Origin: Chiloscyllium plagiosum
Taxonomy: Eukaryota
Assembly (NCBI RefSeq): GCF_004010195.1
Contig: NC_057723.1
Coordinates: forward strand, 31,211,654 to 31,275,653
Length of the DNA: 64,000 nucleotides
Reading direction: 5' to 3'
This document shows positions 12,071 through 57,589 of this stretch, in pieces. Within the stretch, counting starts at the first letter, position 1, and every line of letters begins with the position of its first letter. The notes below the pieces were generated by a model. It had not been told where the DNA came from and made no database searches. It saw nothing but the letters and a program-made list of their open reading frames with translations. Both the position numbers and the translations under genes were made by a program.

Positions 12071-12631
12071 CAGGCTAAGGAAAAAAAAAGAGTAGCTGAA
12101 ATTCCAGGTAATTGGTGATCAAAACTGCAGAGACATAAGCTATAAAGGGGGCATATGTAAAATTCACACTTAGTGCTTCTGTAAGTGTTGGAGAGACAAA
12201 GGTAACACACCACCAATCTGAAATAACTAATCGTCCTTGACCAAGGCAAAGGCTATTGCGGAGTTTGCTCTATGTAGCCCATCTTCTTTCCTCTCTCTAA
12301 GTAAAGGAATTAGATGATTCCAATTTAATGTGATGCAGGAAATTGTCTCACAAGTCATTGGAGATCCTTGGAACACTGAAAGGGAACTTTCACATTTGCC
12401 TGGTGGAAAAAGATAAATGGATTAATGACCAAGATAATTCTGCAATCAATTATCCAGTTTAAGATAACAAGTTCATTGCATGGGAAAATTTAACAATCCT
12501 GTGTACTACTTACTGGGAAGCAGAATCACACCACTGAGATCATAAATGTTGGCAAGAAAATTCAGGCATCATGGTTTAGGTTTAGGCAAATGCTTTCTCA
12601 ACATTTCACTCATGTTCAAATGAGTACTTTG

Positions 12632-12848
12632 AGGAGAAAGTGACGACTGCAGATGCTGGAGATCAGAGCTGAAAATGTGTTGCTGGAAAAGCGCAGCAGG
12701 TCAGGCAGCATCCAAGGAAGAGGAGAATCGACGTTTCGGGCATAAGCCCTTCTTCAGGAATGAAGAAGGGCTTATGCCCGAAACGTCGATTCTCCTGTTC
12801 CTTGGATGCTGCCTGACCTGCTGCGCTTTTCCAGCAGCACATTTTCAG
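12632..12848 (-). mobile_element. PLE-derived palindromic element (family A), young
   Basis: Near-perfect inverted arms of ~85 bp; ~35-nt unpaired extension on the left; 15-bp TSD CAAATGAGTACTTTG (12617-12631, 12849-12863). Confidence 0.9.
12730..12757 (-). ncRNA. Minimal hammerhead ribozyme core
   Basis: Minus strand reads CUGAAGA-A-GGGC UUAU GCCC-GAAACGUC. Confidence 0.7.
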
Positions 12849-15172
12849 CAAATGAGTACTTTGCCCATCTTAGACATTATATTTGATAACATCTGCAAGA
12901 ATGTGAGTAAATTTCTCTTCAAGAAAGATGGGATAGAATTTTTAAAAAACTCGTAAATGCTCCTTGAAGGCTGCTGACATTATGTTTTTCAGGTCAACCA
13001 TAATTCCTCAGTAAGTACAAGCCATCTCATTATAAATTAGGATGATAATTTCCATTCGGATTTCTGATATTTGTCATTAATGTATGTTTCCAGCTACGTC
13101 TGTAACAGTCTATCACACTCACCGCTGTTCTACATGGTAATGGAGTTGTTCTAAATTAATTCAGATATTTAGGAACTTATAAGGTCCCAGCTGTCATCAT
13201 TTGGCAGTACAATAAGCAATTATGGGGAAATGAGACACGGTCATCATGTAAATGTACTTTTGGTCAAATATCGGAGTTATTGAGGGAAGAATCAAAATAA
13301 ATATATATTTTCAGTATAAATGAAATCATTTTCAAAATGATTGATGATGCTTTCAGATTGCTTGTTTGTATTTAAATTAATATGAAAAAGTTTGCATTTA
13401 TGATGAAAATATTAAGCCTTTAATTTCTCTGACTTTTCTCAGCATTTTTCTAAGCTTGTTGAGCCACATCTCTTTGCTAAGGCCTGAATTGGAAATGAGT
13501 CATGATGTAAACAAGCTCAAGAAAAATGGGGAGAAACATAAAGAAAAATGAAAGGCTATTTTTTTCTGAATGAGAAAAAGAGCATCATTTGGCCTGTTTT
13601 CAAGTCTGTCAGCCATGAGTTGACTATTTGGAGGAAGGGACCTAGTGAGACTCTGATTCACCCTACCCTAATTCAAAATCCCACTGCTCGTTTGGTCAAA
13701 ATTCCTTAATACAAATGCATGTTTAAAAAAACCATTTCATGGGCTAGAGCATCATGCAAATGTTCCACCAAAAATATTTTTATTTAAGTCTATAGAAGCA
13801 ACATTAGACTGACATTTCCATGAATGTTTACTCTGTCATGCGGAGTAAAAGTTTAGCTATATCTTTACTCTAAGAATAACTACTGTAAGGACCATAGTGA
13901 TATCTGATTCCTAGTCTGCAAGATTCCAGAAGCTGTTCTCTCTTATGACCCTATGTATAAAGTTGCGTTTAATAAAGAACGTTAATTTATACTCACCTCA
14001 ATGTAGACCTGGTCTTACCACATGTTCGCAGATGGTGCTCAGATGCATGGAATGGCAAGGAGCCGCTGAAGTGAAAGTCAACGATAGTATAGTGTCATGA
14101 GTGAAGAACAAGGCCATCCCAGCAATCCAATCCTAGAAATGGAGGAGAAACAGAAGGGAAAGTCAGGAGTGAGAGGAATAAATGAACAATGGACTTCAAT
14201 GGCCCACCATGGCAACAAATGAAAAACCATGCAAAAACCAAAAACAAATGTGTGGGAAAACTCACAGCAGGGAACACAGGAAGCAACAAAGAACTTATTT
14301 GGCCACAATGAGAAAAATATTACTGTGAACTGAAGATCTTTATGGAGATGGGAAAGGAAAGAGTATTTGGAGAGTCTGCATGTAGGAAGCATGTGAGGAA
14401 ACAAGGTGCATTCACTGTCATTTAGGGATTCCACAGGGAGGAGATATCCCCAGGCCAGCATCTTAAAGAATAATGAGTGCCAAGACAGAGCTGCAGCACA
14501 AAAAGGAATGCAGCCTACAAATTCTGCAAATATCCAGGCATTAGACAACACTATGGAGTAACACAATGATAACTTTGGCCTCCAGCTATTCACTGATCAG
14601 AATTTCACAGTAGGGCTAATATAAGCATTCAAATAAAAAAGATGGGTATTGATGCAGGTGGGTAAGTTGGTCTCTATGAGACTAAGAGAGACTGATGCAA
14701 TCCTTGAACTCAACTCACTCTGATCATGGAGGTGGGGGGACTAAGAGGGAATAACTAATAATATTGAGCTAGGGAAAGACCAATGTATTTTGGAATTTGG
14801 AACCAGCAGATGGACCTAGTCTTGATACGAATAGATACGATCATGCTGTCAGTGAATGGGTGTCTGCTACCAATAACATTGGATATTATATAAACAATAT
14901 TGATCTTGGAGACAGTACTGGCTATGTAGCCAGTATTATCGGCACACGGCACACCAGAAATGTGCATTATGGCACTAGACCATAGTGCTATATGCTGGTA
15001 CTGCCCTGACAGATTTGCTTTGTCTTCCCAGGGTTTAATAAACAAAACATAGACATAAAAGGCTGCATGGGGTGGGGAAAGTACTATTTGTGTAGCTGGA
15101 TGAGGGTGCATATGGCAACAGCATTCTCCAACAATCTGAAAGATATTTTATGAAGAATATAAATGAAATAGA

Positions 15173-15473
15173 CAATAGACAATAGATGCAGGAGTAGCCA
15201 TTCTGCCCTTCGAGCCTGCACCACCATTCAATATGATCATGGCTGATCATCCTTAATCAGTATCCTGTTCCTGCCTTATCTCCATAACCCTTGATTCCAC
15301 TATTCTTGAGAGCTCTATCCAACTCTTTCTTAAATGAATCCAGAGACTGGGCCTCCACTGCCCTCTGGGGCAGAGCATTCCACACAGTCACCACTCTCTG
15401 GGTGAAGATGTTTCTCCTCATCACTGTCCTAAATGGTCTCCCCCGTATTTTTAAGCTGTGTCCTCTGGTTCGG
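15173..15473 (-). mobile_element. CR1 3' end, same subfamily as 538-1869
   Basis: ORF 15257..15517 TRGHSLKIRGRPF...NIFTQRVVTVWNALP; TAGACAA tail repeat. Confidence 0.9.
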
Positions 15474-15502
15474 CAAATGCACAAACAATGCCAAAAAAAT
15501 AT

Positions 15503-15697
15503 AAAGTTAACAATCACACAACATCAGGTTATAGTCCAACAGGTTTATTTGAAAGCACTAGCTTTTGGAGCACTGCTCACCTGATGAAGGAGCAGTGCTC
15601 CAAAAGCTAGTGCTTCCAAATAAACCTGTTGGATTATAACCTGGCGTTGTGTGATTTTTAACTTTTTACATCCAAGTCCAACATTGGCATCTCCAAA
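15503..15697 (+). mobile_element. PLE-derived palindromic element (family B) with a hammerhead motif
   Basis: Arms 15503-15578 and 15590-15665; CAC-CTGATGA-AGGAGCAGTGCTCC-AAAAGCTA-GTG; ~30-nt unpaired 3' tail. Confidence 0.8.
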
Positions 15698-15999
15698 CCA
15701 GAAAATATACAATTACCAAAAGAAATACTCCCCCCAACCAAATGCTACTTATGGGTTGCCTTTTCTGCATTTGTTCAAGTCCAACATCTTTGCAAATTAT
15801 TACTGTGGACCCAAGCTTGTTCCTTGCACACCCCTTCTTTAGTCATGCCCCTGGAGCAGTGGTAACCAAAGCAAGTTGCAAATGGTGAGGAAAGAGGAAG
15901 GAATAATTAACAGCTGTGAATACTACAGAGTAATAAAGCAAATGGCACTAAGAAATGAAATATTGGTGAAGGATGCTGATCAAAGTATCAAGGTACATA

Positions 16000-17800
16000 G
16001 GTGAGTGCATAGTTGAAAGCCATTATTGTCTGTATTGAGCTCATATTTAACACCTTAATTGGAGAAAGTGGAGGTTTTGGCTCTGGGGAGTGGTCCATTT
16101 TAGTGAAGTGGGCACATCGCCTGCCATAGATGGATCTGTTTCTTCATATCTTGTAGCTTCATCCAGCAGCAGCCAAGGTCCTTGTAAATATTAAGTTCAT
16201 CTTTGAAATATGAACAGTCTTCCATTGCCACTCTATTATCTGCAGTGTGGCTGTTACACCAGTTGGGGAAAAAATATAGATTCCCACTTTGGAAGCCTGG
16301 AAATTATAGTCTAAATTTATATTGAGCACTTGCATACAGATTAAATGCTTTGGAGTCAGAGAACTGATAAGAAAATACTATCCTTAGCCAGCCTCTATGA
16401 TATAATAGGTACTTACAATTCATTAGTTGGTGCAGTGTGAACGAGAATAACTGTCATCTCAGCAATGAGAGTATAGAGGCTCTCTGCTTAAGCACTAGAC
16501 TCTGCCTGTGCCAGTTAATGCAGCCAAAGGTTCATTGGCACTGCATTGGTCTGACCAATGCTTTGGCTGATGGGACCCATGGTCTGTAGATAACAGAATA
16601 CAAAAAAGAAGGTTCTGGACCCAGTTGCTGCACTCTAAAGCAAGAAATAAAAGGAACAAAAACTGTCCACTCAGTGGACAGCACTGCTGCCTCATAGAGC
16701 TTGAGACCTGGGTTCAATTCCCACCTCGGGCAACTGACTGTGTGGAATTTGCACATTCTCCCCGTGTCTGCGTGGGTTTCCTCTGGGTGCTCCGGTTTCC
16801 TCCCACAGTCCAACGATGTGCAGGTTAGGTGAATTGGCCATGATAAATTGCCCATAGTGTCCAGGGACATGTAGGCTAGGTGGATTAGCCATGGGAAATG
16901 CAGTGTTAAAGGGGTAAGGGAAGGATCTGGGTGGGCTATACTTCAGAAAGTCGATGTGGTGAATGGTCTGCTTTCACACTTTTGTGCCTCTATGATCTGG
17001 TGATCAAGTAGCTTTTACTGTGTGCAGCTCAGGAGGTGCTCCTGAGGCAAGTGAGGTCCTGCAGCTGGTCCTTTCAGTCCTGGAGGTGATGGACCAGGCC
17101 TGTGCCTGTGCAATTCACAGTTCAGGGCCATCACCATCAGCATGAGGACTTCCTCCTCTACTTCAATCTGTCCATCAAGTTCTGCAGCTGCTGCTTCTAG
17201 ATGCTCTCTGTTCGGCCTTCAGTAAACAAAAAAAAGTTAAAACTTTCATTTTTAAAACCATGGTGAGGTGTGCAGTTCTGCACACCACGTGTCATTTGCA
17301 CTGATTTGTCTTTGAACTTCTGCAATACCATATCTCAAATTGTAACATCTTCAAACAATTGAATGAATGGCTTGAACAACTCTGGTTGCACACATGGCCT
17401 CCAATGTGCTCTTCACTGACATGGTTGTGCTCAGGTTGTAGCCATCATCAGCTCTTTCTGACTCCACACAGCTATCTTAGTTGGGATAGCAACCTGTCCT
17501 CAGTCCTTTCTGTCCTTGTTGCTTTGCAGGATGCTACAGATGGGAAGCAGAAAAGCTATAATGATCAATGGTGTTGCTATTGATACACACTGCTATTTTG
17601 AAAGATCTGGCTTATCTGCAAGCAATATGATTTGTGCTTTGTAGATCATCAGGGATCCACATGTATCCCATGAGGTCACAGTTCTCTGACTTGGGAACAC
17701 TCACCTGAATTCCACTGAACCATTCGCCATGCTACAATTGTGAAGCTCCAACTTGAATTTGTTAGTTGTTTCGAATGGACACATACCTGGAAATCCCAGC
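16000..17800 (-). mobile_element. Heavily decayed PIF/Harbinger relic
   Basis: Minus-strand GFPG-like (~17790) and VVC..HL-like (~17280) traces; weak. Confidence 0.35.
16672..16995 (+). mobile_element. HE1-type SINE
   Basis: GCACTGCTGCCTCA...GGGTTCAATTCC...GGTGCTCCGGTTTCCTCCCACAGTCCAA. Confidence 0.85.
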
Positions 17801-22530: not shown

Positions 22531-23137
22531 TAGACCATAAAATATAGGAGTAGAATTAGGCCATCCAGTCCACTGAGTCTGCTCCATAATTCGATCATCG
22601 CTGATGTGTTTTTACATCCCATTATGCTTCTAAACCCCATTGTTCTATCTTCTCACCATAACCTTTGATCCCCTTACTAATCAATAGCCCACTTTTCTCT
22701 CTTAAAGACACTCAATCACTTGGTAACCACAATGATTATGAGGCAATGAATTCCGTAGATTCACCACCCTCAGAATGAAGAAATTCCTCCTCATCTCAGT
22801 TCTAAAAGGTCGTCCCGTCACTCTGAGGCTGTGCCCTCAGTCCTACTTTCTTTCACTAGTGGAAACATGTGCTTTATGTTCACTCAATCCAGGCCTCTCA
22901 GTATTCTGTAAGTTTCAATCAAATACCCACTCATCCTTCTAAACTCCATCCAATACAGAGCCAGAGCCCTTAACCGCTCCTCATATGACAAGTCCTTCAT
23001 CCCTGGGATTACTCTTGTAAATCTCTTCTAACACCCCTCCTCGGCCAGACCATCTTTCCTTAGATATAGGGCCCAAAACTATTCACCATATTTCAGAAGT
23101 GTTCTAATCAGAGCCTTAAAGAGTCTCAGCAGTATAT
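22531..23137 (-). mobile_element. CR1 3' fragment inserted into a tRNA-SINE remnant
   Basis: Reverse complement gives GHSLRV and RRNFFI motifs; SINE B-box (TTGAACC) at ~22520, continuing at ~23370. Confidence 0.8.
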
Positions 23138-23353
23138 CTTCGAGGAGAAAGTGAGGTCTGCAGATGCTGGAGATCAAAGTTGAAACTTTATTGCTGGAAC
23201 AGCACAGCAGGTCAGGCAGCATCCAGGGAACAGGAGATTCGACGTTTCGGGCACAGGCCCTTCCTGAAGAAGGGCCTGTGCCCGAAACGTCGAATCTCCT
23301 GTTCCCTGGATGCTGCCTGACCTGCTGTGCTGTTCCAGCAATAAAGTTTCAAC
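23138..23353 (-). mobile_element. PLE-derived palindromic element (family A), young
   Basis: Perfect inverted arms of ~85 bp; 14-bp TSD TCTCAGCAGTATAT (23124-23137, 23354-23367). Confidence 0.9.
23261..23294 (+). ncRNA. Minimal hammerhead ribozyme
   Basis: UUC-CUGAAGA-A-GGGC CUGU GCCC-GAAACGUC-GAA; helix I UUC/GAA. Confidence 0.72.
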
Positions 23354-23689
23354 TCTCAGCAGTATATTTCTACTGGCAGAGATGCTCCCCACTGTGCTAC
23401 AGAATCTCTTAGTTCAGACTGTACTAACTTAAATCTTCTCAAATATTTGTGACGTCCATCATACAACATACTTTACCTCCCTAAATTCAGGAGCAATATA
23501 ACTAAACATTGCTGTCTATGTTAACTGTAAAAGGTAAAATTTTACAAAAAAGCTATATCACACCACACCTCGATAATTCACTTTGCCCCTTAAATCACTT
23601 ATGGCCATTGCATTTGTTCACCATAATGTAAATAGCATTTCTCAACTAGTTTACAACTTTCTATCCCTGTGGCAATGTGTATTTATTTT

Positions 23690-24200: not shown

Positions 24201-24939
24201 AAAAAGTTGCACAAGTCTATGACAGACTGTCTGGAGGAGCATATGTTTCTGACACAGCTACTCAGAAAAATTACAGGAACCTGATTCAGGGTCTGTATAG
24301 CCAATGAACTGGGTAAAGATGCATGTAAGCAATGTTTCTCATTATTTCTATTCTCCAGGTCCAACTGCAGCTCCTTAAAGTTACCAGGTTCCCTGTTGCT
24401 GCTATTCCAGACCTTCCATTGTTCTTTTTCTAACCACACACTAGAATTCCCATGTTCCAAGAATATTCAACATCTCATATTTTGGCTTCACCTTGAGCTT
24501 CAATGAAAGCAAAACACTTCAGATGTTGGAAATTGGAAAACAAAAACAAAGTGCTGGAGAAACTCAGAAGGTCTGGCAGCGTCCGTGGAGCAAGAAATAA
24601 AGTTCATATTTCAAACCCTCTTCAGAAATCCAAAGTTAAATTCAGGGGCCCAAACTGTACACAGTGCTCTGGGTGTGGTCTCTCCAAAACTCTACAGTTA
24701 TAACAAGACTTCTTGATTTTTAAACTTGAACTCTTAGCGATAGAGCCAAAATTCAATTTGCCTTCTGAATTGCTTACTGCATTTGCATTCTTAGTTTTTG
24801 CTTCATTCACAAGTTCCAGATTTGTGTCCAAACAATATTCAGGTTTGGGGGTGACAAGGAATATTTGCCGCACACAAATACCAGGTGATATACTAGCGGT
24901 TATCATTCGCCAGAAACTCCACTGGACTCACCATAGAAA

Positions 24940-25540: not shown

Positions 25541-25607
25541 GAACATCCAGATCCTGTGTTGCACTCCCGGCATTTGAATATTAATTTGCCTTTAAATTGT
25601 TCATTCC

Positions 25608-26602
25608 ATTGAGTTTTTTGAAGAAGTAATAAAGAGAATTGATGAGGGCGGAGAAGTAGATGTGATCTATATGGACTTGTGTAAGGCATTCAATAAGGTT
25701 CTCCATGGGAGACTGATAGCAAGGTTAGATCTCATGGAATACAGGGAGAACTAGCCATTTGGATACAGAACTGGCTCAAACGTAGAAGACAGAAGGTGGT
25801 GGTGGAGGGTTGTTTTTCATTCAGGAGGCCTGTGACCAGTAGAGTGCAACAAGGATTGGTACTAGGTCTTCTACTTTTTGTCATTTATATAAATGATTTT
25901 GATGCGAACATAAGAGGTACAGTTAGTAGGTTTGCAGATGACACCAAAATTGGAGGTGTAGTGGACAGCGAAGAGAGTTACCTCAGATTACAACCGAGTA
26001 TAGGAGTTGTGAGGTCATGTTGTGGCTGTACAGGACATTGGTTAGGCCACTGTTGGGATATTGCATGCAATTCTGGTCTCCTTCCTATCGGAAGGATGTT
26101 GTGAAACTTGAAAGGGTTCAGAAAAGATTTACAAGGATGTTGCCAGGGTTGGAGGATTTGAGCTTTAGAGAGAGGCTGGACAGGCTGGGGCTGTTTTCTC
26201 TGGAGCGTCGGAGGTTGAGGGATAACCTTATAGAGGTTTACAAAATTATGAGGGGCATGGATATGGTAAATGGGCAAAGTCTTTTCCCTGGGGTGGGGGA
26301 GTCCAGAACTAGAGGGCATAGGTTTAGGGTGAGAGGGGAAAGATATAAAAGAGACCTAAGGGGCAACCTTTTCACACAGAGGGTGGTACAGGTATGAAAT
26401 GAGCCACCAGAGGTAGTGGTGGAGGCTAGTACAATTGCAATGTTTAAGAGGCATTTGGATGGGTATATGAATAGGAAGGGTTTGGAGGGAATATGGGCCG
26501 GGTGCTGACAGGTGCGACTAGATTGGGTTGGGATATCTGGTCGGCATGGATGGTTTGGACCGAAGGGTCTGTTTCCATGCTGTACATCTCTATGACTCTA
26601 TG
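25608..26602 (+). mobile_element. CR1 RT-to-3' end with an internal deletion at ~25993
   Basis: FADDTKIGG; LYRTLVRPLLGYCMQFWSP; CTCTATGACTCTATGA tail. Confidence 0.92.
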
Positions 26603-29395: not shown

Positions 29396-30758
29396 TGTTA
29401 CATATCGCTTCTTCTGAAATGCAATGACCACGATTGCACATTGTTTTCCAAAGGATAGCTAACTAGATTTAATTTGTTGTAAAATCTCAGTATAATTTAT
29501 GTGGATCGACTTTTTGCCATTCTGCCAACCTATACACAAATTCAATGTTTTAATTTTGTTCCACAATATCTCAACATTGAAAATACCAAGATTACTTTTA
29601 CTTTCAAACTGTGTTTGCAATCTTACCGTGTTTCTTATTTCTATTAATTGAATTCTACAGTCTTACAATGTGCAATAGTTTTCATCAATAATTTTAATTT
29701 TAATTTGCCATTTTTTTCCAATTTTGTTACAGTTAGAAATTGCTTTAACATGTTTTATACTTTTTACACAGCCACTGAACTATCCGTTTTCAAATTACCT
29801 GTGAATTAAACAAGCCTACATTTGGTTTCTCCACTGAATTCAATTAAGTAGGTAAGAAACAATAAGGAGTCAAAAATTTAGTAAGACCCATGATTAGGTG
29901 TAGCGATTATGAAACACAAATACTCTGTATCTAGTCCAGTCGACACAGGCAGCACATAAACTCCCTTTATTTTTTAATTGAATTTGAGTGTTGAGTGAAC
30001 CAAAGGGGTTTTTTGAAGACCAACAATGGCAATTCTTTGGCATTGGTCTTTCACTGGCCTGGTTGGATTTGAACATGTATCCTCCACAGCATTATCTTGG
30101 ACCTCAGAGCTACTAATCCAGTAAATTACTGCTTCATTGTCTCCTTCCACTTCATGCTGTGGGCTCTCTAACATGATTGTAGGGTCCAGTCCAGCAGGCC
30201 CTGACTGGCTGCCCATTCCACAGTGGGACCAACGATGTGCACTGCTCATACTGAAACCATTAGCATTGGCTGCAGCTATTCGGGTAAAGCTGTATATGAG
30301 CCTGCAATTTAGGCACTGGTAGAATGAAATGCAAGTAGCTCAGTTTTAGTTGCATTATTGTGGTCTTGGATAAATTTAACATGACTATTTTGGGGGGGGT
30401 TGTTATTTCATGATTTTGAAACAAAAGGATGGAGTGCTAGTCCTTACCAAATGGATTGAAAAGTAGTAAATTATGGAGCAGTGGTGGTTTGGGACTGAGA
30501 TTTCGGTAGAATCAAAATCTGAGTATCCATTCATTGACAACTTGTCCAATGAATTATTGTCCAGGATGATTCCTATCCCTTTCCTTCTTGTCTTCTGCCT
30601 CCTCTTTTTCCTTCTTTACTGGCAGCTGTCTCCAAAGGTCCAATGGCAAAGCTTGTGTCTTCTCTGACCACCAGTAACTTGGTGACATCCTCTACAATTT
30701 AATGGGGGGCTCCTCCAAGCAGTTCAGCCAGTTGTAGGATCATTGTTTCAGTACATTG

Positions 30759-30928
30759 TACAGAAAGTGAGGTCTGCAGATGCTGGAGATCAGAGCTGAA
30801 AATGTGTTGCTGGAAAAGCGCAGCAGGTCAGGCAGCATCCAGGGAACAGGAGAATCGACGTTTCGGGCATAAGCCCTTCTTCAGGATGCTGCCTGACCTG
30901 CTGCGCTTTTCCAGCAACACATTTTCAG
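30759..30928 (-). mobile_element. PLE-derived family A element with one arm partly deleted
   Basis: 12-bp TSD TTCAGTACATTG (30747-30758, 30929-30940). Confidence 0.88.
30854..30887 (-). ncRNA. Minimal hammerhead ribozyme
   Basis: Minus strand AUC-CUGAAGA-A-GGGCUUAUGCCC-GAAACGUC-GAU. Confidence 0.72.
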
Positions 30929-32849
30929 TTCAGTACATTGCAGTCTGCTTCATGATGCTCCTGGTAACAGCGTTTCTCTAATTGTAGATGTACTGACCTC
31001 ATCTTGTTGGGTAGCATAAAGGGATTCATAATTTAGGTGGAGATTAGCCAACCCTTATAACAAAGGAACCTGCCTCTGGTTTGTTATTGTGACAAAAAGA
31101 TGGCAGTTTGCCTGACAGAGGATGAGTGCATAATGGCTGCTGCTCGAAAAGCAGGTGTGATACCCTGTGCACACCAATGCACCTTTGTGGAGTCATAGAC
31201 CTTGTTTTGTGGTAGAACTCCCTGTTAGTATATAGCACACAATACCATATGCCTCAAGCTGATAGTGTCCTGCTGCACTGAGATCCCTGCTAGTCCAGTA
31301 AATCCATATGCATGCTGTTCCTTCATGGCTAAATAGAAGACAATGTATCTCCCTCCCCTGGATGCTGTTACCTCCCTGATGCAGTGATACCATCCTTACC
31401 CTGCTTTATTGCTCCAGGTCTGATTGGAGGAGGTTGTACATTTCATTTAGCACCTTCTTGCTGAAATGCTGGAACCTCTGACACTGCTCATGTTTGGGTT
31501 CAAGACCAGAAACTGCACCCTGAAGGTCCTTAACGTGGGGAGATCTACTCCTCCTTTATCTGCCTACAGCTTCCACTCTCTGATCCTAACCTCTACCTTT
31601 CCATCTTGTTGTAGCTCAGGAGGAACTTCAATTATAGTTTCCATGACTGAAAGCAGGCTTTCTCTAAATACGCCTTCTGATCCTCTGACCTCCTTGTCAA
31701 AATCCCACTCTTCAATCACTGTCAACATGGTATCTCTACGTACACTGCGGCAGTGAAAGTCAATAGACACCTCACTTGGGAGTTGAATTGAGATCCCTTC
31801 AAGTAATACTTGTCAGGACCAAAGACTAGAGAGCTCCTACATGGAGCTAAATAGTTCAGTGGAATTTATTAAAAGTTGACATAGCAAAGATCAATGGCAT
31901 TATGGAACTAAATTTTGCAGTCAAGTCACCAACTAATGAGTTCTATTAGAATATTGAATTAAGATTAAAATTGAATTTATTGTTTCACTGGAAATTGAAC
32001 ACAAAGCATTGAGCCCATGTTATTTTGTTGATATGGTAGTCTTTCATCTGACAATTTCTCAAGGATGGAGAAATGTGGATACAAATTTCTGTGACAATTT
32101 GGAGGAGTAGGGATGGAAGTGAGTAAATGCAATGTAAATATAAATATATGGTTTGGTGATGGATTATAATCAGGGCAATGAAGTACAGTTCAGCATCAAC
32201 AAAAAACATCTGGACAATGTACAGTGTGTTCAACCTGAACAGCAACTGGGAGTTAAGTTTCAGATTCAGGATTTCAGTCAAAAGCCAAACAACGTGGCTT
32301 TCATCTTGACAATTAGGCTGAAGGTAATTCCAGGTGGCTGGAATTCTACTGCATGGACAGAGCAACAGAACAGTATTGGAAGATCTATGGAATTAAAGTG
32401 GTTGACATCCTTCCATTTATGAGAGATGATCAGAATGCAGTCTCAGAATCTTGGTGAGGTCAGATGAAATCTTCAACTACATTTTTTTAACAAATTGAAC
32501 AAGCTGATTTTGGAAAGGCAAAGTCTTCCACAAGTAGCCCACATGAAATTATCCCTTGCCAATGATGCAGAATGACCTCTGCTGCCATTTTGCTTGCCGG
32601 GCTGGAGTCTTCCCTAGTGTTTCAGAAACCACGTGTTGGGGTGTTGTCAAACTTCTGTCCATAGCTGACTGAATAGTCTGCGCAGTATTTGGAGAAACAA
32701 CTCATGGAGTATCACACTTTGCATTCAATCTGAGACACTGAATCTAGCTGAAAGAAAGGAGCTGCCAAATCTGGGCTGGAAATTGTTCCAGGACAAGCCA
32801 GAAGGTACTTTCTCAAAAGATCACCAGTCACCACTGAACTGAAAAGTTT

Positions 32850-33719: not shown

Positions 33720-33860
33720 CGACGTCCTTCTAAAGAAAGTTCATTGAACATAAACTTAACTTTGCTTTATTCCACAGTTGCTGGCAGACCTGCTGAGTTC
33801 TTCCAACAATTTCTGTTTGAGTTTCTGGTTTCCGGCATTTGCAGTTCTTTGGCTTTTTTT
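33720..33860 (+). mobile_element. PLE family C terminal fragment
   Basis: TTAACTTTGCTTTATTCCACAGTTGCTGGCAGACCTGCTGAG...GGCATTTGCAGTTCTTT. Confidence 0.6.
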
Positions 33861-39039: not shown

Positions 39040-39745
39040 TTCCACTTCATATCTATTGTCCTATCCCTTCATTTAAATTACAAACTTATTTTATCTAGGT
39101 CAGCTTATTTATGCTTAAAATAGTAGTCTCGAATCCACTGAATTATGATTGTTGCTATCAAGGGCATCTACATTATAAGGTCATTAATTAGTCCTAATTT
39201 ATTGTACAATACTAGGTCTAGTATAGCCTATTTTCTGGTTGCCTCCAAAATGTGCTATTCCAAGAAACTAATCCCACAAAATGTTATGAACTCCTTTGCC
39301 AATGTGCCTTTTCCAGTTTATATGTAATTTAAAATTCCCTATGATTAGCTCTGCACCTTTCTCAACAATTCCCATTATATATTATTTTATATTCTATCCT
39401 ACCATGTGACTGTTATTAAGAATCATGTACACAATTCCCATAAGCGATATCCTACTTTTATAATTGGGTATTTCGATCAAATTGCTTCTACATCCTGGTT
39501 TCTTGAACTTAGGATATACTTCTCTCTGGTGTTAATAGTATAATTAATTAATGGAGCCACCGAGTTTCCTATCCTTCCTAAATAACATGTGGTCTTCAAT
39601 ATATAGATTCCAATCGATGTCAACCTGCAGCCCTGGCCCTGTAATGGCTTTCAGATAGTGCAAATAGAAATAAGGTAATGCAGTTAGTTCATCTGCTTTG
39701 TTTTGAATACTAAATGCATTCAGGTTTAGAGCCTTTAGTTTTAAA
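39040..39745 (-). mobile_element. Old CR1 endonuclease region
   Basis: LNLNAFSIQNKADEL...LFRKDR (ORF 39544..39834). Confidence 0.7.
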
Positions 39746-39965
39746 ACAAAAAACTGCAGGTGCTGGAAATCTGTAAAAACAGGAGTTGCTGGAGAAATTC
39801 TGCGGGTCTGGTAGCATCTGTGGAAGGAAAGCAATGTTACCCTTGTCCAGAACCAGAACCAGAACTGAAAACATGTTACTAGACCTGAAACATTAACTCT
39901 GCTTTCTCTCCACTGATGCTGCCAGGCCTGCTGCGTTTCTCCAACTATTTCTGTTTTTGTTTGAG
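39745..39965. mobile_element. PLE family C inverted-repeat element, decayed
   Basis: Arms TGCTGGAGAAATTC..GCATCTGTGG / CCACTGATGCTGCC..TTTCTCCAAC; GACCTGAAACATTAAC. Confidence 0.7.
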
Positions 39966-41270: not shown

Positions 41271-44200
41271 ATTTGCTTTTCTTTGTGGGGTCATGAGATG
41301 CAGGAGTTCTCCAAGTTACACATGAAACATTGTAGCCTCAACTGCTGTTGGTTTTCCTAATGCCCCTTGTGAGATTCTCTGGAAGCCCATTGTCTCAACC
41401 TACCAACATGCCAACATGCATTAACTGCAATCCAGTTTTCCAAACTGGTATCTTCTATGCAACAACATAAAGGTTTGCAGGGTGCTAGTAATGTCTGGGA
41501 GTTAAAATACCCCAGACTGTTTTATGATGGACTGAGTAATTTCCAATTTGTTTTGTCACCAATTTAAAACCCATGCACAGTTAAAATCAGGGCCAATTTT
41601 AGCTTGCTATGAAAATTACATGTGTGCTTATTGTGTTGTAATATATATTTTTCAGCCATATAAATAAATAGACATGGGCGATTTAAATATTAGAAGATCC
41701 TTAGAAAATGTTATACCTGGGAGTACTTGGTCGGAATTGTAGACATTTTTTAACATGTAAGTAATTCATATTATTTCTAACCTGGGTCCACTTAGCACTG
41801 ACTAAGAGAAGTAGAAAAATACAGCACGTTCAGCAATTATACAACTTAATAAACTCTAAAATAAAAGGTACTGTTGACTGATTTGAACAATTTGAACAGA
41901 AATGCACAAGAGTCTGCTAATCAGATTCTGTGGTTTTCCTTTGAAGCTAACTGGCAGAGATTTAAATTCTCTTTTTCTGTGTTCAAATATCATAATTAGA
42001 AAATACTGCATTATTCTTTATTCACTACTGCCCTTTCCAAGTCTTTCTGTTTTCAATGTGGTGGCTAATATCCCAGTCTTTTTAAACCAATTTGAGTGAT
42101 TCTTACATTCAAGGATTAAGAGACAGATGGTAAGAATGTGAATGGACACTTTCAGACTCGACTTCCTTGATGAAGTGCAAAGGAAAGCACTCAATTAAAT
42201 ATTTTCTTATGAACAGTAACCAATAACACCACCTCTTTCATTTTGGCATTTTAAAAAATCTTCCAGATCCTGCTAAGATTTCTCCTGGCAGCAAATGTCT
42301 TTTAGGATTTCCCATTAATTTCTTTGGTGTTTCTCCATGTCCTTTTTATTTGCATTCACTGGAGTGAAAACACACCACGAGGAGTGAAATTAAGAAGTAG
42401 TTTAAGGAGCACAAATTCTCCCAAAATAATTGAAGTTGCTGGTTCTCATTTATCCATTCATGCCACTTCAAAAGTTGCAATTCATGACAGTTTTGATCAA
42501 AGTCTAGGTAACACATAAAACGTATATGGCTTGCCTGTAATGAGAAGAAAAAACAAAAATGGGAAAACACAGCAAGCAGGCAGTATCTGTGGAGAGAAGA
42601 AGGGTGTGGTGGCATGAGTCTCACTTGTTGGCTGGATAGCCAGTGACAGTCCCACTTTGAAAGAAGGCCCACTGTGAGGATGATGTCAGTTTACCTCTGG
42701 AATTGAGGCACCAAGGGCTGAAGTCCCATTCATTTAAATGTTTTAGCTCAACGATTTTTGATCAGAACATCAGATCATGTCCAGTCTATTTGCTTTTAAA
42801 ATTGCTACAGCTGATCAATGGGACCCCAGAGAAGACTTCTACTCAATTACCCATCCACTTTTTCTCCTAAATGGACTTACTGCCTAACAATAGTTAGGCA
42901 ATATTAGTGAAAGGAATATATTCGAACAAGATATCCGGGAATTTTCTCTAATGGCAAATCCAAATTGTAGTAGTATGTTTTTAATACACATGCTGACCAT
43001 TCTGTGACTTTCTTTGAATTTTAGGAAAGCCTAATATTGAAATTTATTTCCTTGAATCATTTATTCTTTGAAACCATGAACTTCCTCCTAAACTGAAATA
43101 CTATTTAGCATTTGGCACAAATCTTAATTAATATAACAAAAGGGTTTGTAAGAGCTTATTTCTTAGAAAGCCAAGTGAATATTATGTTATCTCACCAAAT
43201 AATAAATTAATAAGAAGCAATAAAACCGTCTTTTTATTTAATTGGCAGGTCTTACCAGTAGTGTTCATTTTAATTCACTAACTTATATTCAAAAACGTAT
43301 AAGAATTTATGGAACTGGTCTTGTTACAAGCATTCATGCCATGTTCATATAGAATCATTAAATAGTAGGGTACGAAAGCAGGCAGTTCAACCCATCATAG
43401 CTTTGGGTTTTTCAAACAGAAATCCTTTTATCCCATCCTGCCTCTCATTTCCCATAAATATGTAATTCCCTTTCCTTCAGTTATTTATTTAATTCTATTT
43501 TTAAAGTTTCTAATCAATGTACTTCAGCACCCTGTTAGGCAGTCTAATCCATATCATAAAAATGCACTTTACTCATGTTGAATTATTTTACCTTAAATCT
43601 CTGCCTCTAGTTAGGGAACCTTCAGACTGTGAAAAAGTCATTTAGAACAATGATCTGGATACACTGGTTTCCAAGGAGGCTTGTGACTTCAGTTAAGTTC
43701 CTGGCAGAACTCTATTGTGTTGATAGATGGGATGTTTATACTGCTGAATTTGAAGCAGAAAGCTATTAGTTTAGCTGTTGAATTTAGTTTGAAAGAATCA
43801 GGATTTCAATTCAGAAATTCGGAAAGCATTTTTTTCCAGCAGGTGAATCAAGCTTTGAGCAACTCGTCACCCCATATGATGTGTTTTATTTTGTAGACTG
43901 TCCAAGCCAAAAGAGTTTTAATAGAAATTTTCAATTATTAAAACTGAAGAATGTTTATGTCATTAGGAAAATGTATCCGAGTAGACCAGAAAAAGAATCA
44001 AAAAGCTGCCTCCTGCATTTCAAGTAAAATAAATTGAGAGGAATCAATTAAATTAAAACTTCAGGAGTTGAGTGTCAGTAAAATATCTCTGCAATTGAGT
44101 ATCTGTAAAAAGATAATTTTAGGAAATAGGTTAAAAGTTTGTTTTATTGTTCATGTTATAAGATTTTTCTAACTGCAGTATATAACTTTGAATTTCACGG

Positions 44201-44307
44201 AAAACTAGCTATATCAGTTTTGGGGAGATTCATGGAGGATTTCTCTTCATTAGCTCTAATGAGTTTTTGCATGCAGTTTTATGGTGGTCACCTCATTACA
44301 CAGTATG

Positions 44308-44410
44308 GAGAAAGTGAGGAATGAAGAAGGGCTTATGCCCGAAACGTCAATTCTCCTGCTCCTTAGATGCTGCCTGACCTGCTGCGCTTTTCCAGCAACA
44401 CATTTTTCAG
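44308..44410. mobile_element. PLE family A deletion derivative
   Basis: 16-bp TSD CTCATTACACAGTATG (44292-44307, 44411-44426). Confidence 0.85.
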
Positions 44411-44599
44411 CTCATTACACAGTATGCACTGTGACTGTCTGGTGGCCCATTGACACTGTCATGTTCTCACCAATGGTACAAGTACTCGACACTACCAGGA
44501 CATTCCAGATTCCCTTTTCCAGTGCTGTGTTTAAATCCAAGCTATCATCAACTCAAGTACTGTCAGTTAGGAAATGTCCTTCACAATTTCAGTGTTTAG

Positions 44600-45470: not shown

Positions 45471-45479
45471 GCAGCCTTC

Positions 45480-47689: not shown

Positions 47690-50300
47690 ATAACTGAAGA
47701 ATCATCCAGTGAAGCTTTGTGGGTGGAGCTAAGAAATAAGAAGGGGATGGTGATGTTACTGGGGTTGTACTTATAGGCTCCCAAATTGTCAACGGAAATT
47801 AGAGGAACAAATATGCAGGGAGTTTGGGGAGACTCTCAGGAGCAATTGGATTGTCATAGTTGGGGATTTTAATTTTCCTAACATAGACTGGGACTGCCAA
47901 TTTGTGAAGGGCTTTGGTGGGGTAGAATTTGTTAAGAACGTTCAGGAAAGTTACCTCAAGCAATAGATAGAGGGAAGGGGAAAAACTCGACCTACTCTTG
48001 GGAAACAAGGTAGGACAGTTGACGGAGGTGACACTGAGGGTGCACTTTAGGACCAGTGACCATAGTTCTAGACATTTTTAAATAGTTGTGGAGAGGGACA
48101 AACCTGGTCCACACCTTCAAGTTCTAAATTGGGGCAACATAAATTTTGATAGAATTAGACAGGAGCTTGCAGGGTTTCATTGGAGTGGTTTGTTTGCAGG
48201 CAAAGGGACCTCTGGCAAGTGGGTGGCTTTTAAAAGTGAGATAGCTGGAGTTCAAGGTCCATGTGTTCCTGCGAGGGTGAAAGGCAAGGTTTACAGGAAT
48301 AGAGAACCCTGGATGACAAGATATTGAGGCTTTGATCAGCAAAAATAAAGGAGTCTTAGCTCAGGTATAAGCAGCTGGGATCAAGGGAATCCCTGGAGGT
48401 ATACAAGCAATACAGGAGTTTACTGAAGAAGAAAATCAGCAGGGCAAAAAGGGAGCATGAGATAGCCATGGCTGAGAAGATTAGGATGAATCCAAAGAGG
48501 TTCTTTAAGTATATTAAAGGAAAAAGAATAACTAGAGAGAGAATAGGCCCCTCGAGGACCAAAGAGGACATGTGTTTGTAGAACTGTAAGGAGATGGCTG
48601 AGGTCCTCAATGAATATTTCTCCTTGATGTTTATCATGGAAAAAAAACTTGAAGACTTGGGAACTTAGGGAAGTTAGTGGTGATATCTTGGGGACAGTCC
48701 ATATCACAGTAGAGGAGGTGTTGGATATACTAGAATGTATGAAGATGGACAAATCTTCTCAACCTGAACAAATATATCCAAGAACGCCGCAAGTGGTTAG
48801 AGAAAATATTGCAGGGGTCCTGACTGATATTTTTGCATCATCCTTAGCCACAGATGAGGCCCCAGAAGTCTGGAGGGTAGAGAATGTTGTGCCCTTATTC
48901 AAGAAGGGCTGCAAAGAAAAACTTGGGAAATATAGACCAGTCAGCCTAACATCTGTGGTGGGTAAGTTACTTGAGATGATTCTGTGGGATAAGATATGCA
49001 TGCATTTGGAAAGACAGGGGTTTATTAGGAATAATCAGCATGGCTTTGTGTGTGGAAGATCATACCTCACTAATTGGTTAAAGTTCTTTGATTAAGTCAT
49101 CAAGAAGCTTGACGATGGCAGGCCGGTAGACGTAGTCTATATGGATTTCAGTAAGGCCTTTGATAAGGTTCTACATGGTAGGATACTTTGGCAAGTTAGA
49201 TCACATGGAATCCAAGGGGACTGGCAAATTCGATATACAATTGACTTGATGGTAGGAAGCAGAGGGTAATAGTGAAGGATGTTTGTTGGACTGGAGGCCT
49301 CTGACTAGTGGAGTGCCTCAGGGGTCAGTGCTGGGTCCACTGCTATTTGTCATCTATATCAATGATTTGGATGAGGATGCACAAGGCATGATTAGTAGGT
49401 TTGCAGATGACACTAAAATAGACGGTATCGTGGACAGAGAGGAAGGTTATCAGAAATTGCAGTAGGACATTGATCAGCTGGGGTAGAGGGCTGAGAAATG
49501 ATAAATGGAATTTAATATAGATAAATTTGAGGTCTTGCACTTTGGAAAGTCAAATCAAGGTAGGAGTTTCACTGTGAATAGTACAGCCTTAAGAAAGGTA
49601 GGGGAACAGATGGACCTTGGAGTTGAGGTTCTCTGAAAGTGGGCTCACAAGTAAACAGGGCAGTCAAGAAGGCTTTTGGCACACAGGCCTTCATCAGTCA
49701 AGGCATTGAGTATAGAAGCTGGGAAGTTATGTTGCAGTTGTACAGGACATTGGTGAGGCTGCACTTGAAGTATTGTATTCAGTTTTGGTCACCTTGCTGT
49801 AGGAAGGAGCTTATTGAACTGGAAAGAGTGCAGAATAAATTTATAAGGATGTTGTCAGGATTCAATTGTCTGAGTTACAGGGAAAGGTTGGACAAGCTTT
49901 AGAGTTTACGAGATTGAAGGCGGATCTTATACAAATGTATGAGATCATGAGAGGCATGGATATGGTGAATGCATTCAGTCTTTTTCCTAAGATTTGAGGA
50001 ATCAAAGACTAGAGGGCATCAGTTCAAGACTGGAGGAGAAAGAATAAAAGGGAACCTGAGGGGCAACTGTTTTACAAAGAGTGTTGTATACATGTGGAAT
50101 GATCTGCCAGCAGAAGTGGTGAGGCAGGTGTATTAGCATCATTTAAGAGGCATTTGGACAAATATATGGGTAGGAAGGCTTTAGAAGGATGTAGGCCAAG
50201 TGCAGGGAAATGGGGTTCATGTTTCTGGACATTTTGGTCGGCATGGACCAGTTTGGACTGAAGGGCCTGTCTCCATGCTGTAGGACTCCATGACTCTATG
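47690..50300 (+). mobile_element. CR1 LINE, 2.6 kb (endonuclease C-terminal half, RT, 3' end), decayed
   Basis: WVELRNKKG; VGDFNFPNIDW; YRPVSLTSVVGKLLE; [14 protein letters not shown]; FADDTK; GACTCCATGACTCTAT tail. Confidence 0.95.
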
Positions 50301-53449: not shown

Positions 53450-54330
53450 CTTGTAAGAATGCTTTTGTTATCCCAGCATCTACCACATTGCCTAGTTTCC
53501 TGCTCCAGTTTGCACAGCATAGCACACCAGGTCACAGAGTGATGAGGCACACTCTGTCCAAGCTACACTGGAGACAACCTCTCTCTCATCCAGACTGACC
53601 CAAACAGAAGAACCACATCCCCATCAGCCCTATCTTCTGCTCCTCCATGGCCCTGGTCACAGGACAGGTAAACATTGAATCTGTGCTCAGTATCAGTTTT
53701 AGTATTGTTAAATGGAGTCATCAGCCATGGTCACAGTGGGTAGCCATGATTTCCCATTAGCTAGTCTTTAAAGGCAGCTGAAATCTCAAATATACCAGGT
53801 ACACGAGGATGCTCCAGGATGAAGCAGTCATGGCAGCTGCCAGCGCAGTGGGCATACACCTTCAGGAAGCAGTAACGGTGATCACAAATCAACTGTGCCT
53901 TAATCAAACAGAAGCTCTTCTTCTATAGAATTCCACAGTGGTGTAATATGGTCCTCTCCAGTGCCATGTGTGTATAGTCGATGGTATCCTGCATCTGGGA
54001 GAAGCCAACTATGTTTCTGAATTGAGCTTCAGCACTAACCAGTCATTGGAACTGGTGTGATCATGCTCAATTGACATATGTCACTGTCCTTGTGCATTTT
54101 TGGGCACATTCCTGAGAGATCCCACACAGGTTTCTTGTTGCTTCCTGGAAAGAGTCAATCATATAGTCATGCAACTGTCACCTTCACAACCATTGGGAGA
54201 GGATGGCCTCTCACACCTGCAGCCATCAATTCCCATAATTTAATCATTGTATCCTGGGACACAAGGAGCCTGCATTGACTATGACCCGTACATCCCCAGG
54301 AATGGAGCCAGGAATGAGGCATGATGGAAT
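53450..54330 (-). mobile_element. Harbinger (HARBI1-type) transposase relic
   Basis: GHPLPMVVKVTVA; GFSQMQDTIDYTHMAL (cf. GFPQVQGAIDCTHV); VYAHCAGSCHDCFIL (cf. ARYPGSCHDAFIL); C-terminal CC..N-like motif. Confidence 0.75.
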
Positions 54331-55303
54331 GGAGTTGGGGAGGAAAGCAGGTGAGAATAGTCAGTGGTGGCATATCCTGCAGATGAGGGCTATGCATACT
54401 TCATCACACAGTGAGACATGCTGTACCCAGACAATGAGGGTCATGTTTATATCATTCATTCAGATTCAGCCTCAGCGTATGTACCAAGATGTGAAGGTAC
54501 CACACTAGATGAGTACTCAAGATGTTACATCAAAATGGGAGTCCTTGCTTCCTCCAACCCCTTCCCATTCCAGACTTATAACATCCATAAAGCTTATCAT
54601 TTCAGTCAGTGGAGTCCATTGTAATACTTAGAAGACAAATGATGAAGCGATTGTCTTCACCTCTCACTGGACCTTTGCACAAGTTATGGGCCCCTTCTCC
54701 TTAAGTCATTGCCTCAAACTTCTGCATCATTGAGCTGTCAATGTTCAATTTGCAAGCAACAGTTGCATGTTGCAAATTGTTTTTCACCAGCATTTGAAAG
54801 TGAAGCATGTTCCCTGTAAATGCTTTGCAACTGGACAATGAAATGATTTCAAATTAAATGTTGCTGCAGCTTGTAAGTGCATTTTACATGTATTTGTCCC
54901 TTCAATGTGCAGCAGATGTGGATCTCGCACTTCCATCCATCAGATTAACACTGACTCTGCCCATCCTGGGTGTTGTCCCAGCCTTTTTTTCAGTTGCAGT
55001 TAAATTTTAGTGAACAGCAAGTGACAGAAAGGGAACACAACTTGTGCTGGATATCATCAGCACCAGACTCCACCTGGTCACTTGGTACCAATTCTCCACC
55101 CAAAAGCCTTTCTCCACCTTTTTAAGATGATGTTCATAAAGTGGGAGGAAGCTCAGTTCAAGGACGACTGAGGAAGAATATTCTGAAAAACTGAAAGATC
55201 CATACAGAAACAGAACTTACAAAATATAAAACTAATAATAACGTGAATGTACAGGAAGAATAGTGATACAGTGGCTGATATATTTCAATATTGTCAATAT
55301 TTG

Positions 55304-55789
55304 TTGTGATTTTGTTCGCCGAGCTGAGAATTTGTGTTGCAGACGTTTCATCCCCTGTCTAGGTGACATCCTCGGTGCTTGGGAGTCTCCTGTGAAGCGC
55401 TTCTGTGATGTTTCCTCCAGCATTTATAGTGATTTGTGCCTGCCGCTTCCGGTTGTCAGTTCCAGCTGTCCGCTGCAGTGGCCGGTATATTGAAACAGCC
55501 AGGGAATTCCTAGAGGCATGGCACTCATCCACAGATTCAATCAATAAGCACATCGATCTAGACCCAATATACCGGGCAATGCAGCGGACAGCTGGAACTG
55601 ACAACCGGAAGCGGCAGATACAAATCACTATAAATGCCGGAGGAAACATCACAGAAGTGCTTCACAGGAGGCTCCCATGCACTGAGGATGTCACCTAGAC
55701 AGGGGATGAAATGTCTGCAACACAAATTCCCAGCTCGGCGAACAGAACCACAACAACGAGCACCCGAGCTACAAATCTTCTCCCAAATC
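55304..55789 (+). mobile_element. 5'-truncated Penelope-like insertion (family D) with inverted terminal repeat
   Basis: Arms 55301-55490 and 55568-55755; spacer encodes AREFLEAWHSSTDSINKHIDLDPIY (PLE endonuclease C-terminus); ~34-nt tail; 13-bp TSD TTGTCAATATTTG (55291-55303, 55790-55802). Confidence 0.9.
55679..55718 (+). ncRNA. Hammerhead ribozyme motif with a longer helix II
   Basis: GCA-CUGAGGA-UGUCACCUAGACAGGGGAU-GAAAUGUC-UGC; the mirror copy at 55342-55375 (-) retains GAAACGUC. Confidence 0.65.
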
Positions 55790-56667
55790 TTGTCAATATT
55801 TGGGATGAAATAAACTCCATAAGCTTCTTCACAGTTGAATATGGAAAAGTTTTGTAGTTCTGTTTTCTCTTTAGATTGATAGAGGATCAGTGGATGGCAT
55901 CAATTGTGGAATGAGTGACACGGGCTGCAATATTGACAAAGCAGGTTTGAAAACCTAGAAGAGGTTATGATTGCATGCAATTGAGTTTTAACTTAATAAT
56001 CATTTTCTCTTACAGGAACGCTGCTAGAATCAGTCTGATTGTCAGGCTTAGCCTCTTGTTGGGTCAGAAACATTCAGGAGGAGCAGGAACAGATAAGGAA
56101 CCAACTGCTTTCTGAATGAGAGCAAGACAACTGGACAGAAGGAAGAAACCGGATGTCCATTCAGAGGTTTCTGGGAATGGGTGCCCAATTCTTGATACCA
56201 GAGATTCTTTGGAAGGGAGAGTTTCTTATGATGGGGATGGGATTGATGGTCTAATAGTAGAGGAGGAGGTAGGTTGGAGGAAGGGCACTTATCATTAAAG
56301 CTGCTTTTGTCTCCCTTGAGCTGCTAGTTCTCTCAAGACCTGACACACTATCAACTAGAGTTAAAGCTGCAAAACAGGTTCAATACAAGGCTTTCAGCAT
56401 CATTGCAATGCTTCAATAGCCAATTCACCTCCTGGGATCAGTTTGGTTGCCCATTTCCTGTCCGACCTTCATCAAACCAAAATGTTAGTGCATATAGACA
56501 GGTTGGGGTCAGGTTTGAGGATTTTAAAATGTTTACATCTCACCCAAATCCAAACCAGGCATTTTTGTGATAACTATTAATAACACAATATTGCTTAAGA
56601 TTACAAGGATAGATTTGACATTGGTAAAGCAGGTCCAAGTTCTTTATATGTGCTTATATTTGTGTCT

Positions 56668-56782
56668 ATGGAGGCAACCTGCATCTATTCCTGATGAAGG
56701 GCTTTTGCCCGAAACGTCGATTTTCCTGCTTCTCGGATGCTGCCTGACCTGCTGTGCTTTTCCAGCACCACTCTAATCTAGA
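56668..56782 (+). mobile_element. PLE family A single-arm insertion
   Basis: 15-bp TSD CTTATATTTGTGTCT (56653-56667, 56783-56797). Confidence 0.85.
56691..56718 (+). ncRNA. Minimal hammerhead ribozyme core
   Basis: CUGAUGA-A-GGGC UUUU GCCC-GAAACGUC. Confidence 0.72.
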
Positions 56783-57589
56783 CTTATATTTGTGTCTGTC
56801 AACTTATAGATCCAGCAAGAAGAATTTATTTCAGAGAAAGAACATAGGTGGTAGATCTGGTGGAAACACAATTGGTAAAAGCAGAGCAATGGTGTTTATA
56901 AATAGTTTATTGAGGCCTCAAGGTTTGAAGAACCAAGATAGAGAACGTGCTGAATGACCAGGTCGGCTTTCAGTTCTCGAAACTACAATCTGTAGGAGAG
57001 ATATTTAGTGAGATTGCTGTCAGAAACAAATTTTAATAAGGTGATTGCACTCAGTAAAACAACTGCACTTCACATTAATCCTTTCAGTTCACTTTTCTTT
57101 GGATTGGCCACCCCTCCTGAGGAATTGCCCATTCCTGACAGAGGAATTCATCTCTCTCAGACATTCAAGATCTTCAAGTTATCAAACAAGCACCTCTCAT
57201 GGAAGCACTGAAGATAAACATTAGTTGCAAGTGAACGTTGTTAGTCTTCTTTTGTCCCCATCTTTTTCACTTTAAACTATCACTTGAAGTTGCCACCTAA
57301 CATTTTCAAAGCTGCAGTTGCTTTGAATCTTTAATTGGTCAGAGGGGTGGAAATGTTTTGAATATTGTGTGTGAAACATAAATTGGCTACATCAGAGAAT
57401 ACATTCCAGTCATTTGGAAAAACAGCAATATCCTGAAAGGCATACCATTGCAACAGTGACACTTTCAATTGTACACATATGTACATGCATTAAATTTTCA
57501 GGGGATAAGAAACTTGCTGCTCATCCTAATCAGGTTTGTTTCTGTGCAAGACCTGAAGACCTCAAGGAAGGCTTGCATTGAAAGACAAT

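Follow-up and report, generated by a model that had tools for sequence, protein, structure and literature searches.

Head-to-head hammerhead fragments in a shark genome as probable terminal-module insertions of a Penelope-like element

Minimal hammerhead ribozymes (min-HHRs) of Penelope-like elements (PLEs) possess a type-I core and are characterized by an extra base between positions 9 and 10.1, a G10.1-C11.1 pair, a palindromic 15.2-16.2 segment and a short helix I. They occur mostly solo or as opposite-strand pairs in truncated PLEs, with thousands per genome (PMC4209133; this article, PMC8557442, PMC3846280, PMC6765202 and the preprint bioRxiv 10.64898/2026.07.22.740005 are cited throughout for those portions of their text that our comparison covered). 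PLE insertions typically include an inverted, 5'-truncated copy and, at one end, a tail of 30-40 bp (PMC8557442; PMC3846280). The anole Poseidon element PAc nicks and extends both strands in vitro, using uncleaved RNA as template and two internal start sites of reverse transcription whose spacing equals the tail length; its hammerhead cuts only with protein present, and no RNA-seq ends were found at the cut site (PMC11167929). Animal non-LTR (long terminal repeat) retrozymes are non-coding kin of the pseudo-LTR (pLTR) of PLEs with a type-I hammerhead, and tandem retrozymes are described from one chondrichthyan genome (bioRxiv 2026.07.22.740005). Here we compare with these systems a group of hammerhead-bearing repeats, family A, from a stretch of 64,000 nucleotides of the shark Chiloscyllium plagiosum (contig NC_057723.1, positions 31,211,654 to 31,275,653; in the following, the window).

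The family-A copies are most likely dead insertions, strongly truncated at the 5' end, that stem from the terminal module of an endonuclease-positive (EN+) PLE which is young, very abundant and probably of Neptune type. A preliminary description of the window had listed six copies, all of which are present (TSD, target-site duplication):

Copy 1 (listed as the 2005 copy), 2006..2198: inverted long arm 2006-2131, spacer of about 20 nt, truncated sense arm 2152-2198; older.
Copy 2, 12617..12863: inverted long arm with tail plus sense short arm, arms 87/89 identical; TSD 12617-12631 / 12849-12863, 15 bp.
Copy 3, 23124..23367: CUGU subfamily, arms 85/85 identical, inverted arm without CUGA; TSD 23124-23137 / 23354-23367, 14 bp.
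Copy 4, 30747..30942: full inverted arm 30762-30886, sense arm of 45 nt; TSD 30747-30758 / 30929-30940, 12 bp exact, extendable to 14 bp when one mismatch is allowed.
Copy 5, 44292..44426: inverted tail end of 13 nt, then sense arm; TSD 44292-44307 / 44411-44426, 16 bp.
Copy 6, 56653..56797: UUUU subfamily, one sense arm beginning 23 nt upstream of the core; TSD 56653-56667 / 56783-56797, 15 bp.
Tail, 30762..30795, minus strand: about 33 nt, found on long arms only and absent from short arms.

The copies are 100-220 bp long and none contains an open reading frame (ORF). The clean TSDs seen earlier in five copies proved to be exact (15, 14, 12, 16 and 15 bp), and a length of at least 12 bp was reached in 5 of 3000 random flank-pair draws; a TSD was also looked for in the flanks of copy 1 and none was found. 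Towards their 3' ends, the duplications of four of the five target sites (12617, 23124, 30747, 44292) contain AGTAC or AGTAT, which may reflect an endonuclease preference, though on only five sites in all. The designation as palindromic mini-elements applies to two near-full palindromes, whereas the other copies are short-armed (one), separated by a spacer (one) or essentially single-armed (two).

In all units some 5 nt precede the hammerhead motif, which is followed by about 60 nt and, in part of the arms, by an extension. Counted from C3 of the core, the 3' end lies at +121 to +124 in inverted (left) arms and at +88 to +91 in sense (right) arms. There are thus two fixed 3' ends, one per strand, and the stretch of about 33 nt between them is the tail. 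Five of the six copies have an inverted part, and the arms face each other head to head. Most joints involve 3-4 nt of microhomology, and their centres vary from copy to copy, except that the centre of copy 5 repeats the junction letters of copy 2. Many different back-joints were found among other family-A copies in the sequencing runs. Besides the values listed above, arm identity within a copy amounts to 45/45 in copy 4 and 40/46 in copy 1, compared with short-arm identities of 77/87 (copies 2 and 3), 84/88 and 72/80 between copies, and subfamily variants are common to both arms of a copy. The earlier proposal of a distinct palindromic non-autonomous family is not supported, since junctions differ between copies and copies elsewhere run into shared upstream sequence.

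A plausible course of insertion can be outlined from this anatomy. The terminal module (pLTR) would consist of the minimal hammerhead, about 60 nt and the optional 33-nt tail. We infer that the GIY-YIG endonuclease of the element would nick both target strands 12-16 bp apart, and that reverse transcription would start from two fixed internal sites of uncleaved RNA, one per nick. Both cDNAs would usually extend no further than the hammerhead's front edge, where microhomology of 3-4 nt would join them into a head-to-head unit with TSD. For cleavage after GUC, the hammerhead of the source element itself would need either to dimerise via ACGU or to have the help of the protein of the element. Read depth across the predicted cut site was 7.83/8.63, 7.76/9.79 and 825/1044 in three runs (ratios 0.91, 0.79 and 0.79), and this only modest fall indicates that integrated templates mostly kept the core. 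Taken together, the two fixed 3' ends on opposite strands, arms of a single subfamily and the modest fall in depth show that the window fits the mechanism described for the anole PLE. Self-priming, as modelled in PMC3846280, might also lead to such palindromes. The region 3' of the cut site exhibits no unusual stability (z -0.31, 0.19, 0.41), and a conserved stem-loop at the start of reverse transcription is therefore not claimed.

A descriptor of 28 letters, CTGANGAAGGGCNNNNGCCCGAAACGTC, was used to locate the hammerhead motif with up to three mismatches allowed. It gave nine matches in the window, four of them exact, where none is expected (100 shuffles):

12730-12757, minus strand: intact core of copy 2, exact match.
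23264-23291, plus strand: intact core of copy 3, exact match.
30857-30884, minus strand: intact core of copy 4, exact match, predicted cut between 30857 and 30856.
56691-56718, plus strand: intact core of copy 6, exact match.
2100-2127, minus strand: inverted arm of copy 1, broken by decay, 3 mismatches.
2156-2183, plus strand: sense arm of copy 1, broken by decay, 2 mismatches.
12760-12787, plus strand: sense arm of copy 2, broken, C3 lost at the junction.
23241, minus strand: inverted arm of copy 3, broken by truncation inside the core.
44321-44348, plus strand: copy 5, broken, C3 lost at the junction.

Five of the nine motifs are thus broken, two by decay (both in copy 1), two by loss of C3 and one by truncation in the core. 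The remaining four, which the preliminary description had already picked out, combine the core CUGANGA / GAAA with GUC as NUH cleavage triplet, and in all of them the palindrome ACGU takes the place of helix III. Also in agreement with that description, loop II is UUAU, CUGU or UUUU while stem II is invariant. The unpaired base between 9 and 10.1, G10.1-C11.1 and helix II are present in the intact cores. In helix I, three of the first four positions pair in all four intact copies, with a predicted probability of at most 0.022, and a common variant at 30854 converts a U.U of this helix to U-A. Minimal motifs without helix III are expected to escape the hammerhead models of Rfam; of the 15 matches that a scan of the window gave at E up to 1, none belongs to a hammerhead family. 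Matches of microRNA type did not reach the gathering score and are due to the palindromes.

Of the four extra features of PLE min-HHRs, family A has the additional base, G10.1-C11.1 and the palindrome, with a putative short helix I as the fourth. This supports the assignment to the class that had been made at the outset, and family A is likewise similar in its type-I core, in its solo or opposite-strand arrangement, in its truncation and in its abundance (PMC4209133). Differences concern helix II, with 4 bp compared to 7-8 bp in the Schistosoma min-HHR, helix I, with only 3 potential pairs, and the density, which looks higher than the 4,000-9,000 per genome of coelacanth and Xenopus (PMC4209133). 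Cartilaginous fishes are not named in the portions of text and supplement covered from that article.

The distribution of variants adds to this picture. Among the 40 of 75 variants listed, those within the motif fall on N7 and three bases of loop II (4/5 free positions) and on 0/23 core or stem positions (Fisher p 0.0002), so that the expected core conservation was found among the major variants. Compared with the downstream region (12/91 variable) the contrast is weaker (p 0.057). As variants spare the core, the source elements carry a selected hammerhead, which says nothing on selection on the copies. We conclude that the family-A hammerhead is a genuine type-I minimal motif kept by selection on source elements.

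Age and abundance were investigated with four public runs mapped to 30450-31250 of the window. In organism B, a relative, the site of copy 4 is empty: one contig of 4359 bp joins 30450-30759 directly to 30942-31248 and differs from the flanks at 22 of 617 bases (3.6%). The insertion hence postdates the split of both lineages and is young. In a second sample of organism A, no sequence bridging the site was found. Together with the nearly identical arms of copies 2, 3 and 4, the empty site bears out the recent activity proposed before. Copy 4 attracted 48,576 contig records in organism B and 42,711 in organism A, compared with flanks at single-copy depth; these figures are a sign of abundance in both organisms and not a copy number. 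Family A is very abundant in organisms A and B, as a very high copy number had been suggested.

The connection to PLE proteins was made through a sister family of the window, family B, whose alignment with family A covers the tail and the part downstream of the core. One of its ends leads into a protein remnant:

10925..12060, plus strand: family B end and tail continuing into a decayed PLE ORF, with a decayed hammerhead; not family A.

This remnant is older and separate, lies 560 bp upstream of copy 2 and comprises the 5' part of the ORF, stopping before the reverse transcriptase (RT) core. It matches the proteins of two metagenome loci, L004 and L034 (E 2e-9 and 1e-4), as well as a horn shark protein with 78% identity over 83% of the 48-residue query. 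The PLE proteins matching the remnant contain a cysteine linker which we take to be that of Neptune, and the source element of family A, judged through family B, probably belongs to this clade. Older copies of family B are located at 6927-7251, in an arrangement of three parts, at 24510-24613, 33752-33851 and 39745-39965, and also at 4359-4416 and 42549-42598. They share the downstream module and tail of family A with a decayed hammerhead of different stem II, and several are head-to-head.

A relaxed motif pattern yielded 122 metagenome loci, which are alike to family A in the 28-nt motif only. Their helix I positions pair in fractions of 0.85, 0.75 and 0.63 versus 0.41, 0.41 and 0.38 after shuffling (75 distinct classes, flanks left unspecified by the pattern). 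In an alignment of 65 motifs (62 metagenome loci and 3 from the window, with the two outer helix II pairs fixed by the pattern), covariation in helices I and II leads to pairing in 81% of cells versus 55% when shuffled (0/500); strong helix I covariation is seen only across other families. Among seven metagenome loci with long ORFs that were scanned, three contain ORFs of PLE type, most scores being below the Pfam cut-off:

L004 and L034: RT plus GIY-YIG.
L023: GIY-YIG; L024 is the same contig.

The long ORFs of L059, L030 and L012 are unrelated to PLEs. In L034 (260-3406) the first ATG of an intact-looking frame of 1049 codons with RT and GIY-YIG matches falls within the core of the hammerhead, a feature shared with the anole element. 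Head-to-head hammerhead pairs were also seen in unrelated metagenome contigs (L038:1642-1722, L045:3476-3564, L093 and L111). The same palindromic layout occurs far outside the Chiloscyllium genome.

Several observations weigh against an origin of family A from an autonomous EN+ PLE. No family-A copy in the window is joined to an RT or endonuclease ORF, which makes the link to such an element an indirect one, through family B and the anatomy; a protein search with the open frame across copy 2, a weak search, gave 0/10 candidates joining a family-A end to a PLE ORF. The exact family-A motif had no match in metagenome and viral contigs. The centre common to copies 2 and 5 could result from copying of a palindromic source, and minor core variants, for example from CpG decay, may exist beyond those 40 of 75. 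Finally, alignment and centres place the start of 8 of the 11 arms in the interval from -6 to +5 of C3; one further arm starts 23 nt before C3, two start well downstream and none at the cleavage site. Such a concentration within 6 nt of C3 is unlike random 5' truncation, and a defined short RNA may therefore exist.

These arm starts also speak for a SINE-like (short interspersed element) mini-PLE, that is, an RNA of about 130 nt starting before the hammerhead, with master loci of its own, mobilised in trans by PLE protein and forming palindromes at insertion. Six copies in 64 kb without any ORF attached point in the same direction. In rotifer the pLTR alone is enough for trans-mobilisation (PMC3846280), and in D. 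virilis an intron ends just where helix I has its 5' end (PMC4209133), which could define the end of such an RNA. However, upstream of the core the reads of other copies share a consensus (356 RNA reads, agreement 0.57), the first 14 letters of which recur in a second run and which is not present in the 64-kb window. Since reads continue into this shared sequence, and since copy 6 extends 23 nt upstream, part of family A derives from a longer RNA. A fixed master is further contradicted by differing centres and by copies extending upstream, no single 5' boundary or centre being common to all of them, and no pile-up of RNA begins or ends is listed. We therefore regard a mini-PLE as possible but doubtful.

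In a related and equally tentative interpretation, the hammerhead's front edge rather than its cut site would set the 5' end of the RNA of about 130 nt, which would be a real mobile SINE-like unit. Its end might then be given by the start of transcription, by splicing or by a stop of reverse transcription at the folded or protein-bound motif. This unit might be twin-primed from two fixed internal sites and have multiplied in sharks to some 10^5 copies, and the motif might be kept for a structural or ribonucleoprotein role, besides or instead of cleavage.

The preliminary description had also envisaged a large genome-wide reservoir of working ribozymes; such a reservoir might be retrozyme-like, with possibly circular RNA, and cut host transcripts. 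In favour of it, 4/9 motif copies are intact in sequence, and 2,033 of 12,955,460 records of a raw RNA run match family A. The anole hammerhead cleaves with the help of protein (PMC11167929). Copies 4 and 6 form helix II with predicted probabilities of 0.94-0.99 and 0.84-0.98, respectively, and are only about 5-6 kcal/mol away from the hammerhead fold of the monomer. On the other hand, helix I has a predicted probability of 0.0 in copy 4 and at most 0.022 in copy 6, and the ACGU duplex of a dimer is worth only about -3 kcal/mol. The intact cores of copies 2 and 3 are buried in predicted hairpins of 85-90 bp, with a helix II probability of 0.0 and a cost of 52 and 48 kcal/mol, respectively, for forcing the hammerhead fold, and in both the complementary arm is transcribed ahead of the core. 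The copies are 7.6-13.5 kb apart and there is no same-strand tandem pair in the window.

The RNA reads are in line with this assessment. Of the 2,033 matching records, 96% continue into other loci, and no reads were found on the flanks of copy 4. No pile-up of begins or ends is listed among them, which is a weak test in a poly(A), fragmented single-cell library of which 2% of the run was covered, and the 15 of 79 joints listed include none from this RNA run that would point to circles, poly(A) libraries being unsuited to circles. The strand excess of the RNA reads is about 1.4-2.7 to 1. Lone min-HHRs did not cleave in vitro (PMC4209133), neither did 8/9 Xenopus dimers (bioRxiv 2026.07.22.740005), and according to a review min-HHRs likely work as dimers at very low rates (PMC6765202). 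With five of nine motifs broken, half of the intact ones in long hairpins and none in tandem, a large reservoir of working ribozymes is very unlikely; judged from the predicted folds, the genomic copies probably do not act as ribozymes, and the hammerhead in these genomic stumps would be a passenger.

Least probable is a palindromic master, a MITE-like (miniature inverted-repeat transposable element) or fold-back DNA transposon copied whole with an incidental hammerhead likeness. It is favoured by the hairpin-like form of two copies and by the centre letters common to copies 2 and 5. Against it stand the constant 33-nt asymmetry of the ends and the variation in arm length, centre and TSD (12-16 bp); moreover, variants avoid the core, and the motif covaries across unrelated PLE-linked loci.

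Family A shares head-to-head arms, a tail at one end, microhomology joints and an empty site with insertions of EN+ PLEs, and differs in units of 100-220 bp without ORF and in TSDs of 12-16 bp instead of the 8-10 bp of rotifer examples (PMC8557442; PMC3846280). Similar to PAc, its signature suggests two starts of reverse transcription downstream of the hammerhead, nicking and extension of both strands and an uncleaved template, with no pile-up of RNA ends at the cut site listed, whereas the ORF of PAc starts inside the hammerhead and the clade of family A is probably Neptune instead of Poseidon (PMC11167929). Animal non-LTR retrozymes are alike in being non-coding, in their type-I hammerhead and in their kinship to the pLTR of PLEs, but consist of head-to-tail tandem units each with a hammerhead, while family A is dispersed, head-to-head or single (bioRxiv 2026.07.22.740005).

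The window contains further repeats of related kind. A third palindromic hammerhead family, family C, was observed at 15503-15665 and 2579-2659, with a core at 15581 (plus strand) in which one core base is decayed; AGCU replaces the palindrome ACGU, hence the triplet is CUA. A fourth, family D (55291-55802), has inverted arms of about 190 bp, a TSD of 13 bp and a decayed hammerhead at 55682 (plus strand) with a longer stem II. The translation of its centre presumably resembles the C-terminus of a PLE endonuclease, with no Pfam match; 0/3 short frames from 55291-55802 were recognised by Pfam. Many fragments of a LINE-like (long interspersed element) repeat, which we take to be CR1-like, were noticed at 25600-26600, 49000-50300, 57600-59600, 63700-64000 and elsewhere, including an inverted pair at 57800-59600. 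An assembly gap occupies 907-1584 (678 N), and the repeat flanking it recurs at 15197-15475.

In the literature on sharks no description of family A was found, though Repbase, Dfam or figures and supplements outside the material covered may hold one. The kind of element is already in print; family A adds a clean example from a shark, of use chiefly in annotating repeats. It shows no large pool of active ribozymes. The two fixed 3' ends, the uncleaved template and arms of a single subfamily agree, in a distant vertebrate, with the mechanism of PLEs established in vitro in 2024. The start of arms at the front edge of the hammerhead instead of at the cut site bears on the role of PLE hammerheads. 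If this edge indeed set the end of a mobile RNA, genome sequences would suffice to read the second-strand step of Penelope transposition from the huge collection of junctions.

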